Positions 18,912-26,213 of a stretch of DNA of 33,139 bases are shown here, piece after piece. Below the pieces are notes generated by a model. The model made no database searches. It was not told the origin of the DNA and was given only the letters and a program-made list of their open reading frames with translations. Within the stretch, counting starts at the first letter, position 1; each line of letters opens with the position of its first letter. A program made the position numbers and the translations under genes. The stretch lies in sequence record SRR22947727_3624. One strand, given 5' to 3'.

Positions 18912-19217
18912 TCAAATCCCAACATCTTTTGCTTCGCCTTTCGCCTTTTTAGGAGCCTCTTTTTTGGCTGGTTTGTCGGTGTGATCATCGCGCTTTGCAT
19001 CCCCTTCACGGCCATCCTTTTTGCCGTGATCATCGTGTCCTTTTTCGGCAGCATGATCTCCCGCATGTGGGTCGGAATGATCGCCGTGCCCATCTCCGTG
19101 ATCACCGCCATGTGGCTTAAATAGCTGGCTGGTTTCTTCAAAACTATGCCGCTCACAACCTACGATTCCGAATCCAGTTAGAGCCGGAGCAATCAACAAC
19201 AATCGAGAGAATTTCAT
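18912..19217 (-). CDS. Small His-rich lipoprotein
   Basis: Signal peptide with lipobox IVGC, then the His/Asp-rich tract HGGDHGDGHGDHSDPHAGDH and a Lys-rich tail. Confidence 0.75.
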   Translation of the reverse strand: MKFSRLLLIAPALTGFGIVGCERHSFEETSQLFKPHGGDHGDGHGDHSDPHAGDHAAEKGHDDHGKKDGREGDAKRDDHTDKPAKKEAPKKAKGEAKDVGI

Positions 19218-19528
19218 TCCATTTCGATAGTCTAACCCACAACAAAAGCAACTGATACCCGTTCAAATTTGGGAAAAAATTGGCAATTTTTCGTCATTTT
19301 CTCTTAATTTCGTTTATTATTTAGATGTCTTAACTAAATTTTGAATTCTTCATTTTTAACTTATTTGTATGCTACGCGCTTTTTAAAATCAATTTGGATC
19401 CAGTTACGTTGTGCCTACTTAATCGTAGCGCACTTCCAATTTTCATAAAAAATTCAAACACGCGAAAAACATAAAAGAATAAGTTGCACTCTTGCATACG
19501 GCTATGCTACACCTCTGGCAGAAAAATC

Positions 19529-20218
19529 ATGCCGAGACCTCCCTCCTTCTATCATCCTTTGCGTGATATCCGAAAATTGACGGACACAAAAACTCAGGCA
19601 GATTTTGCCGAGTTGGTAGGAGTTGCGGCACCCACGATCCAGGCGATCGAAAACGGAAAATTCGAGATCAGTCGAAAGCTCGCGTTGCGGATCGAGCGCA
19701 CGACCGGAGTCGACCATCGGGAACTTCTTAAAGGGTCTTCTGGGAAACCGCTTGCGGTTGACGGAAAAAAGTATTCTAGAGACTTCTACGAATGCTGGAT
19801 CGAGCAGCTCAATTCAGCCCCTGAAAATTCACTTTCAGGCAGCATGCAGCAACTCGGGTTTTGGACTCGACTTTTGATTCGCGCGGCGGGTAACGAATCA
19901 TCAAAAAATCGGCAACGCGCGTCGGTTGTTCACCTGCTCACGGAAGCCCTCGATTCCGTGTGCCAGGATTGTGATTTAGAACAAGCCGTAGAGCACCTTT
20001 TGACCCCCATGAAAAAGGTCGAATACCATGCATCAACTCCGAAGCGGTGGATCGAAGGATCAACCGAATTAGGCAAGAGTCTCGACACGATCGCACCACG
20101 ATTTCATCCCAGCGCACGCGTAGTGATCGCGATGGAGAGAATCCCCCGCTGGGCACCGGGTCATCCCGTTCCGGGAAATTTACTCGAAAATTCAGATAAA
20201 ACTTCCACCACTTCATAA
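19529..20218 (+). CDS. XRE/Cro-C1 family helix-turn-helix protein with extended C-terminal domain
   Basis: LRDIRKL..KTQADFAELVGVAAPTIQAIENGKFEISRKLALRI is an HTH_3 pattern. ATG 19529 is the likely start. It ends 5 nt before the tubulin ORF. Confidence 0.88.
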   Translation: MPRPPSFYHPLRDIRKLTDTKTQADFAELVGVAAPTIQAIENGKFEISRKLALRIERTTGVDHRELLKGSSGKPLAVDGKKYSRDFYECWIEQLNSAPENSLSGSMQQLGFWTRLLIRAAGNESSKNRQRASVVHLLTEALDSVCQDCDLEQAVEHLLTPMKKVEYHASTPKRWIEGSTELGKSLDTIAPRFHPSARVVIAMERIPRWAPGHPVPGNLLENSDKTSTTS

Positions 20219-20223
20219 CTTTA

Positions 20224-21495
20224 GTGAATACCAAATTTACAATGGACGAAGGCAGTATTCTCGTCACCGGTGTTGGACAAGCGGGCAGTCAAATGGCCGC
20301 CGCGTTTTGGGCACAGTTATGCCGCGATCATCAAATCATTCCCGAAACCGGTCGTTCAGACGCTGAACCGACCGGTCACTGGCAGAAACTCTTCACCGCG
20401 GTTGGAACGGGCTCAGAAACGCACTACGTGCCTCGTTGCCTATTCCTGGATTCCGATCCCCGGGCGGCAGATGACTTGAAGCGAACTTGGAGCGAGCTGT
20501 TCAATCCGGCAAATTTCGTAACCGGCGTTGAATCGAGCGGAAACAATTTCGCTGTGGCCGTTCGAGAAGTGGGCGATCGCTTGAATTCCGATATCCGTGC
20601 TGTTTTGGACCGCGAGTTCCAGAAAACTCCCGCACCTACGGCATTTATTGTATTTCAAGGATACGGCGGTGGATCCGGCTCCGGGCTTGCCGCTGGGCTC
20701 TTCGAGATTTTGAAGGACTATGCCCCGGCAGCCCCGATAATGACCGTAGGCGTCCTTCCGTCCACTTCTGTCTCTTCGCCGGTAACGGAACCTTACAACG
20801 CCGTATTCGGCATCGAGGCGGCTCTAAAACATATTTCTCTCGGACTTGTTTTCCACAACGATATTCTGCTGCAATTAGCGGCCTCTCACTGGGAAATCGA
20901 ACATCCCAGCATTCCGCACATCAACAAATTGATTGCAGATATTGTGCTGGCTATGACCGGCTCAATTCGATTCAGTGGCGATGAAAATCCGGCGAACTCG
21001 CTGGCCGATGTTATCCACGATTTGGCCCCTCACCCTGATTTCCCGCTGGCAACCGGAGCGATTTTCCCACTTCAGTCGATTTTGCGAAAAAACGCGTCGG
21101 TCAGAACTTCAGGGCAGATTTTGAATCAAGTCCTCGAGAAAAACCTCGATCTCTGTCCGTGTGCCGATGGAAAAATCCTCAGCCTCGGCATTTACGGAAA
21201 AAATCGGGCGGGCTTGCAAGTACTTCGGAAAAACGAAAAGGATAATGAAACTGCGATTCCCCACTTCGCCCGCGTGCATTTGAGCACCGAACCGTCACCG
21301 CATTCAGCAATTTGCGTTCTGGTAAACAGTTCATCGATAGGAAGTTGGCTGCAGGAATTGTGCGAACGATTCGATCAACTTTGGAGCCGTCGCGCCTTCG
21401 CCAATTGGTATTTGGAGGCTGAAATGACTGAATACGACATCGAAACACGCCGCCGCGAAGTTGGATTCCGTGCCGAGCGCTATCAAGATATTTGA
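20224..21495 (+). CDS. btubA: Divergent bacterial tubulin, BtubA-like
   Basis: Tubulin motifs VGQAGSQ...FW, YVPRCLFLDSDP, LFNPANF, GNNFA, GGGSGSG (20665-20685), VSSPVTEPYN, RFSG and FDQLWSRRAFANWYL. LFNPAN, NFAV, W.IE.P, RFSG and AFANWYL match Prosthecobacter BtubA as recalled. Start is GTG 20224 or ATG 20242. Orthology to canonical btubA versus paralogy is uncertain. Confidence 0.88.
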   Translation: MNTKFTMDEGSILVTGVGQAGSQMAAAFWAQLCRDHQIIPETGRSDAEPTGHWQKLFTAVGTGSETHYVPRCLFLDSDPRAADDLKRTWSELFNPANFVTGVESSGNNFAVAVREVGDRLNSDIRAVLDREFQKTPAPTAFIVFQGYGGGSGSGLAAGLFEILKDYAPAAPIMTVGVLPSTSVSSPVTEPYNAVFGIEAALKHISLGLVFHNDILLQLAASHWEIEHPSIPHINKLIADIVLAMTGSIRFSGDENPANSLADVIHDLAPHPDFPLATGAIFPLQSILRKNASVRTSGQILNQVLEKNLDLCPCADGKILSLGIYGKNRAGLQVLRKNEKDNETAIPHFARVHLSTEPSPHSAICVLVNSSSIGSWLQELCERFDQLWSRRAFANWYLEAEMTEYDIETRRREVGFRAERYQDI

Positions 21496-21684
21496 GTATT
21501 AAGAACCTGAAAATTAGTGAGCATGAATATTAACTTGGAAAACACTGAAACGCTTGATAGTTGGAGCCCCGACGCTGAGCTTAGATTGTTGGGAGATCCT
21601 GAAAAATTGAATCCGCACCATGTTCCCGGTTCGCTGCCTTCAGTCCTTGTCACAATCAAACAGGGTTCAATCGAATCAACGCGA

Positions 21685-21727
21685 CGATCGAACAGGGGTG
21701 GTTCGGTGAACATCCTCAATCCGATCG
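21685..21727. repeat. Degenerate REP-like repeat inside the tubulin locus
   Basis: cgatcgaacaggggtggttcggtgaac is nearly identical to cgatcgaacagggtctgttcgatgaat at 31228-31254. A further partial arm lies at 21655-21667. Confidence 0.6.
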
Positions 21728-21859
21728 GAACACAGTTGAAACCAAGGCGTGATGACATTTCGCATTCGTTCAATTTTGACTCTCGTTAATTAAAATAATC
21801 ACGAAATTTATAGAAAGCCTCGTAATATCCTGTCTATTCTACTCTTTCTAAGTCCGCAT

Positions 21860-23165
21860 ATGCCTAATCTCGAGCCCTTTGGCGATTTCCTTGTTTGCCA
21901 AAACAAGGACCGGAACCCGATTTCGCTCCGCAGAGTGTCTGAAGAAGTCGTGTGCCTTGGATTTGACCCTTAAAACCAATCGCTTTGTCGAACTGCACGT
22001 TATTAGCAGATGGAGGGAAATGGCAAATTGTCATTTTTGGAACGTGCCTGGAATGCAGGAACGATCCATAACCATTGTTTTCAGAAAATCCTGGCGGCAG
22101 CGGACGACGACGGGATTTTCTTTTACGCAACCGACATCAACGAAGGCGAGTTTCTGACGGACTACATTGTAAGGAACGACCCGGTGGAACCGCACACTGC
22201 CCTGGCCTTGTCTCTAGATCTTATAGACAGTTTAGTTGAGGTCGAGCCTCACTATCGCTTATTGCTTGGATTGCAGTTGGAGAATCTCATGGTTGTTTTG
22301 GAAAAATCAGCTTATCTGACTCTTCGAATTATCGATCTAGGATTGGGTCGTCCGGAGCCTCGCGGGATGAACGATTTTGAAACTATCGACCTTTTGGCTG
22401 ATGTTTCCCGTCAGCTTTATTATTTGTTGGCGGGTCGGCCTTACGCGGTTGGGCAGCAAGGCCAAAGTGGAAGCTCTTAAGAACGTGGATCCTGCTGTGA
22501 TTAAACTGCTCTCTGACACCATTGAACCTGAAACGGGCTCCGTGGACACTTTTGAGCGTTATCAGGAATTATTAGAGTCTGCATACAATAAAGGGACAAA
22601 AGATCTTCCGCGACGTTCAGCAATCGCCGCAACTCCAAAAACGCGACCTCGGTTAACGATGCAACGCGAAGTGTTCGATCGAGTGGGCGCGAACGATCAA
22701 CTCAACTCGGCCTCGTTTGATCTCGAACCCAGTGTTGGCGTTTTTGAATGTCCCTACGCATTGAATGCAGTTCGTAAGGGAAATTGAGAACGGGGTCGGC
22801 TTCCATGGATTCCACCTCGTGGCATTATTCCGAGCCCACCTCAGGAAGAAGGGCTGATTCTTCTCAACGGATCTTACTATCGCTTTCTGACAACAACGAC
22901 GGGCGTGAGCTTTCAGGAATTTCTCATTCTGCGAAACCATCGCCCTTCATCGATCGATTCAATTCTGGTCCTCAACGGACTCGCCGGCAAGATTAACGGA
23001 GGCACTTTAAAGAACGAGGCCTTTTCATTCCACCAGGTTTGGTTCGAACTTCCCGGAAAAACAGGCGAAGAGATTCAGGACACTGCGAAGAAGAGTGTCG
23101 ATCAATGGCCTTCCGTAAACGTCAAAATCCTGCCGCCTTCTGAAACGTCAGTCTATCTACCCCCA
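21860..23165 (+). pseudogene. Fragmented Hanks-type Ser/Thr kinase-like (pseudokinase) gene
   Basis: Reconstruction starts at ATG 21860 with MPNLEPFGDFLVCQNKDRNPISLRRVSEEVVCLGFDP. A shift at ~21971 gives KTNRFVELHVI. A shift at ~22008 gives SFLERAWNAGTIHNHCFQKIL...DGIFFYATDINEGEFLTDYIVRNDPV...ENLMVV...RIIDLGLG...YYLLAGRPY. A shift at ~22452 leads into ORF 22377-22787. After an in-frame TGA at 22785 the frame stays open into ORF 22905. Confidence 0.72.
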
Positions 23166-24146
23166 CCCGCCGCAGCAAACAACTGGGCGCGCGGTTATCA
23201 CGTTGAAGGTGAGCGCATCATCGATCAGGTGATGAACGTCGTCGACGCAACGGTGGACAAAACTGAGTCGCTCCAGGGATTCATCATCACCCACAGTATC
23301 GGTGGCGGTTGCGGATCACTTATCGTTGAGAAACTTCGCGAAGCGTATCCGAAGAGGAAGATTTTCACATTCTCAGTGGCTCCATCTGCTTTGATTTCCG
23401 ATTCTGCGACTGAGGCCTACAACTCAATTCTTTCACTCCAGAAGCTGAAGGAAAATGCGGATGCAACGATCCTTCGCGATAGCGAAGCGCTCTTCCGTAT
23501 TGCTCAGTCAAAGCTGAAGCGTTCGCCGAATTACATGGATGTGAATCACATGACATCATTGATCATGTCCTCGGTCACCAGCTCACTCCGTTTTCATGGA
23601 ACACTGAACACTGACCTCGGCGAATGCCTTGTGAACCTTGTTCCATTCACCGGAGACCACTTCCTCACGGCATCTTTTGCACCGATGACTCCGACAAAAC
23701 CCGACGGCATTGTCCGGACCGAATTTGCGGATTTGGCAGCCGAGACCTTTTCGCGAAATAACTTCTCTGCCGAAATCGACTTTGATGCCGGTGTTTTTCT
23801 CTCAGCCTGTGCGCTGTTCCGTGGAGATATCAGTGCGAAATCTGTTGATGAAAAGGTGTCCGAAATTCGGAAGTCACTCAAATTTGCTTCTTACGTTCCC
23901 ACGGGAATCAAGATTGGTATTATCGACACCGCACCGGAAGGCTTTGGCTCAACCGGCTTGGCTTTGGTGAACCACACTGGAATTTCGCAGGTTTTCAAAC
24001 GTCGTGTCGAACAGTTCGACATCATATTCGAAAACGAAGCCTACACTCATTGGTATCAGAACAACTGCGTGAGCCTTGAACGACTTGAGGAAGCGCGGAA
24101 TGTGGTTGCAGATTTGGCGAAATCTTACGATGATGGTGCTGCGTAA
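22905..24146 (+). pseudogene. btubB: 5'-truncated bacterial tubulin B fused in frame to non-tubulin sequence (open 413-aa ORF, probably decaying)
   Basis: From ~23169 it reads AANNWARGYHVEGERIIDQVMNVVD, LQGFIITHSIGGG, SPNYMD, LNTDL, HFLTASFAPM, LFRGD, TAPEGF, GLALVNHTGI and AYTHWY, closely matching BtubB as recalled. It lacks the N-terminal GQCGNQ/PRAVLVDLEP region, and the signature is reduced to GGGCGS. Confidence 0.9.
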
Positions 24147-24273: not shown

Positions 24274-25074
24274 TTGAGAAATACAGAAACAGACCTTCCG
24301 ATAGAAAAGCAAATTACAGGAGCATCTCGCGATGTTGACCGTTTGCGGCGCCTATCATACAGCGATCACCGATTCCTTCCCGATTTGGTGGACGCGTTAT
24401 GCGAACTCGCAAAATTCCGTTCCAGAATCGGAGAACCGGGTCGTTCCGAGCGTCTTTACAGCGAGGCACTGGTCCACTGTAAAGAATCCGATATCGAAGT
24501 AGCTCCAGAGCTGCTTTTCCGGATTCATTCGCTCATGGCGTGTCACTTCGACAATAGTGAGCGGAATGAGAAAGCTGTCGAGCATTACGAAGAATCTCTC
24601 CGACTCGCTGAAGAAGCGAATCTCCTTGAACCAATCCAGGTGGCCGTCGTTCACAACAATTTGGCGATGCTTTACAAACGGACATCCCGTCCGGAAGCAG
24701 CGGAGAAAAGTTATCTAAGCGCCCTAAACAAATTTCAAAAGGGACTCGACAGGAATAACAAAGACGATGCTCGTGTTGCCTCCGTCTACAATAATTTGGG
24801 AGTTCTCTATTATTCAAAGCACGATTTTGATCGCGCCTGCGAGTTTCATTCTGAAGCGTTGACGATTCGTCAGAAGCTTTTTGGGGAGAATGGTCATCAT
24901 TACGATCTTGGTCAGTCTTACAACAATCTAGCCGCCGTCCACAAAGCGATGGGTAACTACGAAATGGCTGCTGATTATTTCAGCAAAGTCGAAAAGCTTG
25001 GTGACATCGCCGATCCGACCGTGCAAAGCGGGATTGATCCTGAGTCAGGCGTGGGTGAAGTTGTGACTGAGTGA
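24274..25074 (+). CDS. btubC: BtubC / bacterial kinesin light chain-like TPR protein
   Basis: KLC-type TPRs NNLAMLYK, ARVASVYNNLGVLYYS, ALTIRQKL and DLGQSYNNLAAVHKAMG. The N-terminal IEKQITGASRDVDRLRRLSYSD resembles BtubC as recalled. It lies directly downstream of btubB, as in the canonical operon. TTG start uncertain. Confidence 0.88.
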   Translation: MRNTETDLPIEKQITGASRDVDRLRRLSYSDHRFLPDLVDALCELAKFRSRIGEPGRSERLYSEALVHCKESDIEVAPELLFRIHSLMACHFDNSERNEKAVEHYEESLRLAEEANLLEPIQVAVVHNNLAMLYKRTSRPEAAEKSYLSALNKFQKGLDRNNKDDARVASVYNNLGVLYYSKHDFDRACEFHSEALTIRQKLFGENGHHYDLGQSYNNLAAVHKAMGNYEMAADYFSKVEKLGDIADPTVQSGIDPESGVGEVVTE

Positions 25075-25202
25075 GGTTGTTCGACTCAGCGAAAGCGATG
25101 AGCGAACAGTTGTGTCCGTTTGATTTTGAGATTCAATTTTGACCCGAAAAAGAAGCGTGACCCCTGCCCGTTTTCGTGCAGATTCCACTTCGGAAATCTC
25201 CT

Positions 25203-26213
25203 ATGCCACTTCTCGCCGAAACCAGTTTCGTATTTGCCAACCCGTGGGCGTTTCTGCTCCTTGGGCTGATTCCGCTGTTGCTCGTTTTAAAAGGCAAAAA
25301 AGGCCAACAAGGCGCGGTTGTATTTTCGTCGCTGCATATTCTGAACCGACTCGGGCCGATGACTCGTTCCCGCGCAGGCGGTTTTCGAATCGCGCTGATG
25401 ATGCTGGCACTTGGATTCGGAATTCTTGCACTGACGCGACCGCAATGGGTCGATAAAAAAACTAAAACGACCGAAAGCGGAATCGAGCTGATTCTCGCCA
25501 TCGATGTTTCACGCTCAATGCAGGTCGAGGATTTTGAGATCGGTGGTGCAAAAGCAAACCGGCTTCAGGCTGCGAAGAAAGTAACGCGCGAGTTCATTCG
25601 CGGCCGTAAATCAGATCGGATCGGCCTACTTGCGTTTGCAGGGCGACCGTATTTAGCAAGTCCCCTCACTGTTTCTCACGATTGGCTCGAAGGCCCCAAT
25701 GGATTGGGCCGTGTTCGCATCGGTTTGGTTGAAGACGGGACTGCCATCGGATCTGCTATCGCCGCTGCCGCAAAACGACTCGATAAGCGCCCTGCCAAAT
25801 CCAAGGTGGTCGTACTTTTGACTGATGGCGTGAACAACTCAGGAAAGCTCTCACCGATCGAAGCCGCCAAACTCGCCAAAACACTCGGGATTAAAATCTA
25901 CACCATCGCCGTGGGAACGTATGGTGATTACACCGTGCAAACCCCGCGCGGCCCACAGATGCTGCGTCAGGAATTCGACGAAGAAACGCTCCAGCAAATT
26001 GCTTCGATTGCAGATGGCGATTATTTCCGGGCTCAAGACACCAGCGGATTAGAAACCATTTTCAGCCAAATCGATAAGTTGGAGAAAACGGAGGTAAAGA
26101 CTCGCACGACCGTTACCGCGGACGAACTGTTCTATTGGCCTGCATTTATTGCCTTTCTCTTTGGCCTGCTGTCATTGATCGGCGGCGAAACATTCTGGCG
26201 ACGGTTTCCATAA
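25203..26213 (+). CDS. batA: vWA domain protein, BatA-like
   Basis: N-terminal FANPWAFLLL (BatA N-domain), ALTRPQW, MIDAS DVSRSM, DRIGLLAFAG, DGTAIGSAI, LLTDGVNNSG and C-terminal TM. Start is 25203 or 25176. Confidence 0.88.
   Translation: MPLLAETSFVFANPWAFLLLGLIPLLLVLKGKKGQQGAVVFSSLHILNRLGPMTRSRAGGFRIALMMLALGFGILALTRPQWVDKKTKTTESGIELILAIDVSRSMQVEDFEIGGAKANRLQAAKKVTREFIRGRKSDRIGLLAFAGRPYLASPLTVSHDWLEGPNGLGRVRIGLVEDGTAIGSAIAAAAKRLDKRPAKSKVVVLLTDGVNNSGKLSPIEAAKLAKTLGIKIYTIAVGTYGDYTVQTPRGPQMLRQEFDEETLQQIASIADGDYFRAQDTSGLETIFSQIDKLEKTEVKTRTTVTADELFYWPAFIAFLFGLLSLIGGETFWRRFP

Follow-up and report, generated by a model that had tools for sequence, protein, structure and literature searches.

A probable third family of Btub-type tubulin, allied with an XRE-type helix-turn-helix protein and orphaned beside the remnants of a btub locus

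The DNA stretch SRR22947727_3624 (33,139 nucleotides; here denoted the window, whose coordinates are used throughout) carries on its plus strand, at 20224..21495, a gene for a tubulin-like protein of 423 amino acids, which we named tubX. Our analysis indicates that tubX very probably represents a third family of Btub-type tubulin, one whose members are fused to or adjoin an XRE-type helix-turn-helix (HTH) protein, and that it is found here in a split and orphaned form. The HTH gene lies immediately upstream of tubX, and a deletion downstream has removed the canonical btubA together with the first part of btubB. This assignment draws on open reading frame (ORF) listings, Pfam matches, relatives in the Protein Data Bank (PDB), phylogenetic trees and the gene order of related genomes.

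The ORF listing confirmed the uninterrupted frame of 423 amino acids at 20224-21495 that the original prediction, made from this DNA alone, had reported. The frame opens with GTG; gene callers place the start at the ATG at 20242, yielding a product of 417 amino acids (protein P0001). Pfam Tubulin (PF00091) matches the protein with an E value of 1.6e-40 (139.9 bits, against a curated cut-off of 33), and a search of tubX with Tubulin_C (PF03953), which matches both BtubA and BtubB, gave no match. Among solved structures BtubA comes closest (2bto_A; 238 bits over residues 11-415, ~33% identity), followed by Asgard AtubA (198 bits) and then by alpha-tubulins (~150-160 bits); the best 60 solved relatives are BtubA, Asgard or eukaryotic tubulins, and neither TubZ nor gamma-tubulin is among them. 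An AlphaFold2 model built on a 75-row alignment reached a predicted local distance difference test value (pLDDT) of 88.7 and a predicted template modeling score (pTM) of 0.91, with confidence lowest in the T7 loop and in residues 281-360. Searching with this model, Foldseek ranked BtubA chains at the top, at template modeling (TM) scores of 0.85-0.87, and returned alpha/beta-tubulins at 0.80-0.86. By its PF00091 match, its T1/T4 signatures and its tubulin fold, tubX is a true member of the tubulin/FtsZ superfamily. PADLOC and NCBIfam assigned no family to tubX or to the gene that follows it (here denoted mid), and the ESM Atlas gave no usable match.

Alignments to BtubA and within the tubX clade bore out the motifs singled out in the original prediction. 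GQAG (residues 18-21), GGGSGSG (148-154) and EPYN (189-192) are kept, the first two being invariant or nearly so across the four clade members. Other motifs are altered: DSDP at 76-79 stands for DLEP of BtubA, HNDIL at 211-215 for DNEAL, and in the T7/H8 stretch GDENPANSLADVIHDL at 252-267, D262 aligns with the Glu of BtubA 'LRE', which we take to be the catalytic residue equivalent to alpha-tubulin E254. The C-terminal tail is indeed missing, as tubX stops at residue 423, compared with 473 residues for canonical BtubA in the PDB and 510 in a sister species (genome G050). The shortening proposed for the S8-H10-S9 region was only partly seen, in an aligned span of 405 residues against 418 in BtubA, in the missing Tubulin_C match and in the AlphaFold2 confidence, which reaches its minimum over residues 321-360. 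The asymmetry noted between the two tubulin sequences of the window is plain: tubX scores 238 bits over 405 amino acids against BtubA and the downstream fragment 466 bits over 332 amino acids against BtubB, and in comparison with the proteins of G050 the identities are 33% and 87%, respectively.

To place tubX among related genomes we used a near-identical reference genome of 6 Mb (G001), which has 97% of sampled words in common with the window and is 99.81% identical to it, without gaps, over 12,115 bases. G001 has three PF00091 matches, namely tubX, the btubB fragment and an open frame of 737 amino acids on contig C19, which is presumably FtsZ. Two further genomes of the same genus carry tubX plus a canonical btubA-btubB pair, the very combination that the original prediction had proposed to look for, and so support the third-paralog interpretation. 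In G050, three tubulins on one strand of one contig are 59%, 33% (canonical BtubA) and 27% (BtubB) identical to tubX, and ORF maps and tblastn gave the order HTH gene, tubX, mid (509 amino acids), btubA, btubB, btubC. In G335 (locus L036) the order is HTH gene, tubX (71% identity), mid (507 amino acids), btubA and btubB, the last being cut off after its start by the end of the contig, and the remainder of btubB and btubC are on another contig. In both genomes btubB follows the other, canonical btubA and not tubX. The alternative offered earlier, that tubX is a BtubA neofunctionalized after the loss of BtubB, is rejected because the canonical btubA has been deleted outright in the window lineage.

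The distribution of tubX is narrow. A tubulin match at E <= 1e-20 was found in 66 of 301 genomes of the order, and any match in 5 of 134 genomes of the family; tubX is present in all three genomes of the genus (g1). Among 1.84 billion representative proteins there is one 50%-identity cluster near tubX (59%), the next being the BtubA cluster at 34%, and a word-index search gave four clusters in total, tubX itself and relatives at 71%, 58% and 54% identity. The NCBI name for these proteins is 'hypothetical protein'.

An LG+G4 tree of 117 rows joined the four tubX sequences in a clade with support 100 and a stem of 0.97, sister to BtubA (support 95; joint clade 98), within a wider clade that holds BtubA and Asgard AtubA. 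By these trees the tubX clade stands beside or at the base of BtubA, apparently outside the ordinary BtubA orthologs. The tree check suggested earlier set tubX apart in a long-stemmed clade of its own; a site-heterogeneous model left the branching order at the BtubA base undecided, and the approximately unbiased (AU) test left a clade of tubX with the BtubA of its own genus unrejected (p 0.243). Nonsynonymous divergence (dN) between tubX pairs is 0.22-0.38 and synonymous divergence (dS) is saturated in all pairs, so that only dN and relative rates are usable and the ratio proposed as a check is not. Given these dN values at saturated dS, together with the long invariant blocks common to the four sequences, the long-term evolution of tubX is constrained rather than neutral. 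It is nevertheless several times faster than that of BtubA (dN 0.11 between G335 and G050) or BtubB (0.044).

The XRE-type HTH gene upstream of tubX (19529..20218, plus strand) encodes 229 amino acids from a conserved MPRPP start; the listed ORF begins earlier, at a TTG at 19484. The protein consists of an N-terminal Cro/CI-like DNA-binding domain (Pfam HTH_3, E 1.9e-9) and a middle domain of ~150 amino acids. Residues 3-84 superpose on Cro/CI-type repressor domains, including those of P22 c2, the 434 repressor, ImmR, SinR and DdrO, with Z 7-8 and a root mean square deviation of 1.7-2.2 Å over 62-64 residues (VIA-align). Foldseek and a wide VIA-align search with the model of the whole protein gave matches confined to these residues and none for the middle domain. 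The gene ends 5 nucleotides before the tubX start, and tubX is in a different frame.

In at least 12 other Verrucomicrobiales species (families f4 and f1) we found the two parts joined in single proteins of 570-700 amino acids with the order HTH, ~150-residue middle domain, tubulin. Along its entire length the HTH protein of the window is 32-37% identical to the N-terminal ~225 residues of these fused HTH-tubulins; the alignment opens with an invariant MPRPP...HPLR.IR start and closes at P.W.PG..PP, beyond which the fused proteins enter tubulin strand S1. The split point between the HTH gene and tubX is exactly the linker of the fused proteins. The f4 genome G063 has a frame of 654 amino acids whose first ~220 residues are 36% identical to the window HTH protein and whose remainder is a tubulin domain, and its locus reads fused HTH-tubulin, mid homolog (hmmsearch E 5.6e-49), btubA, btubB, btubC. 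Pfam detected HTH_3/HTH_31 and Tubulin in one protein in all six candidates examined (G063, G103, G017, P0012, P0016, P0018), and no Tubulin_C in these six. Querying longer proteins with the HTH protein returned seven fused proteins of 633-650 amino acids, which the Joint Genome Institute (JGI) labels 'transcriptional regulator with XRE-family HTH domain'. Three split forms were found, the window's own protein included.

In family f4 the HTH part was present in 12 of 38 genomes (g26, 4 of 4; g14, 7 of 14; g36, 1 of 1), and in at least 8 of the 12 it abuts a tubulin match in one open frame; btubA and btubB are also present in G063 only. A sample of 401 genomes of the phylum yielded the HTH part in G001 alone. 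Of 85 Verrucomicrobiaceae genomes searched, 50 have tubulin matches that reach E <= 1e-20, as a rule BtubA and BtubB alone; a tubX-type match was found in none of the 85. When the fused tubulin domains were added to the tree they joined tubX with a Shimodaira-Hasegawa-like approximate likelihood ratio (SH-aLRT) support of 94, the joint group being sister to BtubA (support 90). The grouping of tubX with the fused proteins rests, independently of the tree, on the synteny shared with G063 and on a T7 pattern, RF.G.(D/E)..P..L, common to tubX and the fused tubulin halves. These alignments identify tubX as the tubulin half of a split protein and the upstream HTH protein as its N-terminal half. A complex prediction for the two proteins scored 0.01, which is evidence neither way.

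To learn which surfaces of the tubulin have been kept, four tubX and 17 BtubA sequences were compared element by element, with the elements taken from the AlphaFold2 model. In tubulins T7, H8, S8, H10 and S9 form the minus-end-facing longitudinal surface, which holds the catalytic T7/H8 residues, and T1 with H1, T5 and the H11-H12 loop lie on the nucleotide, plus-end-facing side. The minus-end-facing elements are the most constrained in BtubA and among the least conserved in tubX: the invariant fraction in T7, H8, S8, S8-H10-S9 and S9 is 0.62-0.83 in BtubA versus 0.10-0.38 in tubX (0.70 versus 0.10 for T7), and the tubX consensus equals that of BtubA at a fraction of 0.00-0.30. In T1+H1, T5 and the H11-H12 loop the invariant fraction of tubX is 0.60-0.71 and the identity of its consensus to BtubA 0.56-0.71. 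At the catalytic T7/H8 position the four tubX sequences have D, A, E and G, and the GTP motifs, in loops T1, T3, T4 and T5 and at the H7 Asn, are kept. Because the nucleotide side is conserved and the opposite surface is not, tubX probably binds GTP and can probably be contacted on its nucleotide face, and it is unlikely to serve as a normal polymer subunit or as an activator of a neighbor's GTPase. BtubA of Prosthecobacter (PDB 2BTO, 2BTQ, 5O09) is the best match by sequence and fold and is similar in the GTP-binding loops and the H11-H12 region. Differences from BtubA are the low identity and long separate stem of tubX, its coexistence with a canonical btubA in sister species without being directly followed by btubB, the lack of conserved T7/H8 acids, of a Tubulin_C match and of a C-terminal tail, and its pairing or fusion with an HTH protein.

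Downstream of tubX the canonical btub locus of the window is broken. The first element is a pseudogene of mid, a kinase-like gene that is intact in G335 and G050, at 21860..23141 (plus strand), which was delimited by tblastn with the G050 and G335 proteins, by three-frame reading and by indels between strains. It aligns in one frame over 21860-22465 and in another from ~22467, to residue ~433-438 near 23147-23168. Two in-frame stops interrupt it near 21968-22006, its frame changes at ~22456-22467, a further stop follows at 22785-22787, and its 3' end is deleted from about codon 438. The btubB remnant (23142..24146, plus strand; codons 88-425) follows in frame with it, within an open frame at 22905-24146. 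This remnant matches BtubB 2btq_B over residues 88-425 with a gap of four residues in GGGSGSG, corresponding to a four-residue deletion in this T4 loop near 23312, and its identity to G050 BtubB was measured over residues 88-424. As the mid alignment runs to about codon 438 and BtubB then continues from residue 88 in the same frame, a deletion of ~2 kb has taken the end of mid, all of the canonical btubA and btubB codons 1-87, leaving an in-frame mid'-btubB' frame. Two other metagenomic runs have contigs that cross the junction (X14 record 11 and X12 record 6), and G001 has all the lesions of the window. Beyond the remnants btubC is intact (24274..25074, plus strand); it encodes a bklc-type tetratricopeptide repeat (TPR) protein of 266 amino acids with matches to Pfam TPR_12 and related families and 73% identity to G050 BtubC.

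The btubB fragment looks released from constraint. Its branch is 0.10, compared with 0.009 for G050, and the three-taxon dN, by our arithmetic on pairwise values, is ~0.066 compared with 0.027 and 0.017. Three of its four differences from G001 are nonsynonymous, it has two indel polymorphisms, and strains differ by in-frame indels at the T4 loop. In the mid remnant strains differ by six indel polymorphisms, and 278 nucleotides of this remnant are skipped in one contig.

A palindrome, GCATA-N4-TATGC (GCATACGGCTATGC; 19494..19507, no strand assigned), lies 22-35 nucleotides upstream of the HTH start and is a putative operator or anchoring site of the HTH protein. It is the sole match in the window and the sole exact match in the 6 Mb of G001. 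With at most one mismatch, the palindrome is conserved within 35 nucleotides of the start codon in five of six loci (the window, G335, G050, G063 and G103), and three of these five have a second copy 94-152 nucleotides upstream. Five genomes, ~32 Mb in total, hold five occurrences of the exact motif, four of them upstream of the HTH-tubulin gene; a reversed control pattern occurs one to three times per genome. Iteron arrays were sought in three regions upstream of the HTH gene and none was found, these regions holding one or two palindromes only. A promoter and terminator scan gave no more sites than shuffled sequences.

The function that we favor, and to which we would give about an even chance, is that of a DNA-tethered, GTP-binding tubulin-like switch acting on its own promoter. 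The HTH half would bind, probably as a dimer, the palindrome overlapping its own promoter region, and the tubulin half, held to the HTH half, would bind GTP. With its T7/H8 acid and minus-end surface unconstrained and its tail missing, tubX would be unable to act as a normal polymer subunit and would then be a nucleotide- or partner-dependent switch domain on DNA. Such a switch would control how its own operon is expressed, and ancestrally that operon would have run on into mid-btubA-btubB-btubC. In the window genome the canonical pair has been deleted and the HTH-tubX unit retained; most genomes with the fused form likewise have this unit alone. We infer DNA binding, GTP binding, autoregulation and the absence of polymerization from sequence comparisons. 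XRE one-component regulators that carry a sensor domain at the C-terminus (such as XRE-cupin, ImmR, SinR and DdrO) likewise have an N-terminal Cro/CI-like HTH and a palindrome at their own promoter, and differ in that the effector domain here is a complete tubulin fold. Of the roles guessed at in the original prediction, capping, nucleation or that of a regulatory monomer, the last comes closest to the proposed switch, and the other two are weakened because most HTH-tubulin genomes lack btubAB.

Several observations weigh against a self-regulating switch or against its upkeep in this lineage. G017 has a different palindrome at the corresponding place, and within the window the palindrome alone is not significant (one found, 0.36 expected). 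The clade of tubX and HTH-tubulins unites two long branches, which calls for a long-branch warning on the tree. In the genomes G103 and G017 the fused gene stands alone, monocistronic among unrelated housekeeping genes. Since such stand-alone genes are monocistronic and the exact palindrome is found nowhere else in the genome, self-regulation alone is an incomplete account, and the tubulin half probably has a further output. In addition, a sub-lineage ~97% identical to the window tubX includes one full-length tubX and three forms of 308 amino acids that start at residue 116, these N-terminally truncated variants being found on seven contigs of up to 71 kb. Of the 12 differences between this sub-lineage and that of the window, 6 fall at sites conserved in the outgroups; at greater depth 36 of 113 do so, which is no significant contrast (Fisher p 0.22). 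Conserved-site substitutions are P271H, P282L and S292P in the sub-lineage and S186P and T279A in the window lineage, and the copy of the window may be decaying.

Carried further, these last points would make tubX a not-yet-broken relic without function, in a btub locus that has been decaying as a whole since the deletion; the loss of btubA, the truncation of btubB with its T4-loop deletion and the multiply broken mid fit such a course, as do the truncated alleles and the substitutions at conserved sites. We consider this quite unlikely. Given the four lesions in the 1.28 kb of mid, about four would be expected in tubX if both had evolved neutrally for an equal time, and none is seen (p ~0.02 by our rough Poisson estimate). 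The 23 differences of the window from G001 all lie outside tubX, and neither tubX nor the HTH gene, which is intact as well, has an indel polymorphism, versus six in the mid remnant and two in the btubB remnant. The tubX branch of the window is no longer than that of G335, 9 of the 15 cluster members listed are full-length, and the run search met the stretch in eight studies. Moreover, the family persists elsewhere without btubAB, and the test for relaxed constraint was, as given above, not significant. Parts of the HTH gene, of tubX, of the mid remnant and of the btubB'/btubC junction are covered by contigs from two seawater RNA libraries, which is slight evidence that the tubX region is transcribed, since DNA carry-over is possible; portions of the stretch without cover from RNA runs do not show silence.

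Two other roles would tie tubX to a polymer. TubZ-TubR-tubC are type III partition systems of plasmids and phages of Bacillus and Clostridium, with a winged-helix HTH protein, TubR, and iteron arrays. By analogy, the HTH half might anchor a chromosomal site to a tubulin polymer and DNA would be moved or positioned, the polymer being either a tubX homopolymer or, where btubAB exists, a BtubAB mini-microtubule with tubX at its minus end and the BtubA-like nucleotide face of tubX bound by BtubB. We consider such a machine unlikely. In its favor, a tubulin-superfamily GTPase gene lies just downstream of a small HTH protein gene with a cis site upstream that would serve both anchoring and autoregulation, in the order of tubC-tubR-tubZ. 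The covalent fusion is a direct link of DNA and tubulin, the GTP motifs and the BtubA-like nucleotide-side surface are conserved, the place ahead of mid-btubABC is conserved in two families, and a pure self-regulator would be unsatisfying in the stand-alone genomes. On the other hand, tubX is a true tubulin and BtubA relative and not of the TubZ family, no TubZ being among its best 60 solved relatives, and the HTH is of the Cro/CI (XRE) type rather than winged-helix and is covalently fused to the tubulin in many species. One or two palindromes are found instead of an iteron array, and the unconserved catalytic T7/H8 acid and minus-end surface make canonical polymerization doubtful. The loci lie on the chromosome in single copy, among housekeeping genes on contigs of 50-260 kb, and searches of plasmid (72,556 records) and phage (50,697 records) collections gave no relative. 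The main guess of the original prediction, a gamma-tubulin-like cap or nucleator of BtubAB mini-microtubules, or an alternative non-hydrolyzing partner of BtubB, with DNA uninvolved, seems to us very unlikely. The analogy is to a non-polymerizing paralog whose plus-end face could receive an alpha-like (BtubB) subunit and whose other face is specialized, and tubX resembles this in that its plus-end-facing T5, H11-H12 loop and T1 are BtubA-like and its minus-end-facing elements degenerate. Its catalytic acid is lost, as in beta-tubulin (K254), and it lies in one locus with btubAB in G050, G335 and G063. Yet gamma-tubulin has no sequence affinity to tubX (none among the best 60), and most carriers of tubX or HTH-tubulins lack microtubule-forming tubulins, only one of the 12 f4 genomes with the HTH part having both btubA and btubB. 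None of the 85 Verrucomicrobiaceae genomes, 50 of them with tubulin matches, has a tubX-type match. In the window tubX has stayed intact after btubA was deleted, and a cap or nucleator leaves the fused HTH domain and the conserved palindrome unaddressed. A further reading, which we hold to be improbable, is that HTH-tubX is a DNA-anchored tubulin on its unique palindrome that offers its nucleotide face to BtubB and nucleates or tethers mini-microtubules at the DNA site, and that in lineages without btubAB it is a self-contained DNA-positioning tubulin. If true, this would be a minimal gamma-tubulin-plus-kinetochore-like link between chromosome and microtubule in a bacterium.

No cellular function of BtubAB has, to our knowledge, been established. 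A third Btub-type tubulin, older and wired to a sequence-specific DNA-binding domain, would give concrete handles on the purpose of bacterial tubulins: a DNA site and a protein pair that are both defined, fused as well as split forms in nature, and natural btubAB 'knock-outs' such as the window. HTH-tubX heads the btub locus in two families, and the union of an HTH with a complete tubulin fold would be a new domain architecture for the tubulin superfamily. Our literature search for a third Btub paralog or an HTH-tubulin fusion found no description; the supplementary trees of PMC13394414 may contain tubX. In the portions of the literature covered, bacterial tubulins are the one pair BtubA/BtubB plus BtubC. 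The sections covered of a 2023 survey describe prokaryotic tubulins as 'very restricted', with BtubA/B in Prosthecobacter plus OdinTubulin, state that gamma-type partners were 'never found in prokaryotes', and hold no mention of an HTH architecture (PMC9871819). AtubC is a third Asgard tubulin clade, according to the covered part of PMC13394414, and a third Btub-type tubulin would parallel it. The part covered of an earlier study judged the flanks of btub operons to be unrelated and noted a Ser/Thr kinase gene beside one operon (PMC2175320).

Other btub loci yielded some observations on mid and on the canonical tubulins. In 50 of 76 Verrucomicrobiaceae loci (L038-L113) btubA is immediately preceded by a mid homolog (~2.8 kb upstream, e.g. 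L052:7248-9731). There it has 700-920 amino acids, with two regions that resemble kinases and, close to the C-terminus, a transmembrane stretch; the Pkinase family of Pfam matches mid homologs at residues ~347-423, above cut-off in one of three proteins tested. By this arrangement mid would seem to be a fourth conserved component of the locus. The canonical BtubA of the window's genus has 510-512 amino acids (L034:6804-8336, L036:13071-14609), with a charged C-terminal extension of ~80 residues that is absent in Prosthecobacter BtubA. Protein P0009 (738 amino acids) has Tubulin, Tubulin_C and C-terminal TPR repeats in a single chain and is apparently a Btub-type tubulin with a BtubC-like TPR domain joined to it, and P0008 (505 amino acids, from metagenome assemblies) is a divergent BtubA-like protein that branches near the base of the BtubA clade. 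G340 has an extra BtubA-like copy (G340:C46:951-2120, locus L126), 40% identical to BtubA and broken by frame changes and a TGA; this genome has an intact btubA-btubB-btubC locus elsewhere and lacks tubX. A frame of 921 amino acids in G307 that would be a BtubA-BtubB fusion is not real, as a masked run of N lies inside it. In G103 and G017, frames of 622 and 580 amino acids that follow the fused gene were considered as conserved genes; they are unrelated to each other and to mid and appear spurious, lying opposite the real genes for LepA and a glycogen-branching-type enzyme.

Within the window, the spacer between tubX and the mid remnant (21496-21859) is 364 nucleotides long, compared with 127-133 nucleotides in G050 and G335, and 4 of the 23 differences from G001 fall inside it. 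Twelve of the 23 lie within 210 nucleotides at 25988-26195, in the 3' end of a von Willebrand factor A (vWA) domain gene (25176-26213); ten of these are synonymous, and the cluster looks like a recombination tract between strains. On the minus strand, an ORF of 101 amino acids at 18912-19217 has a lipoprotein-like N-terminus and a body very rich in His, Asp and Lys (HGGDHGDGHGDHSDPHAGDH...), a composition from which its product may be a metal-binding periplasmic protein.

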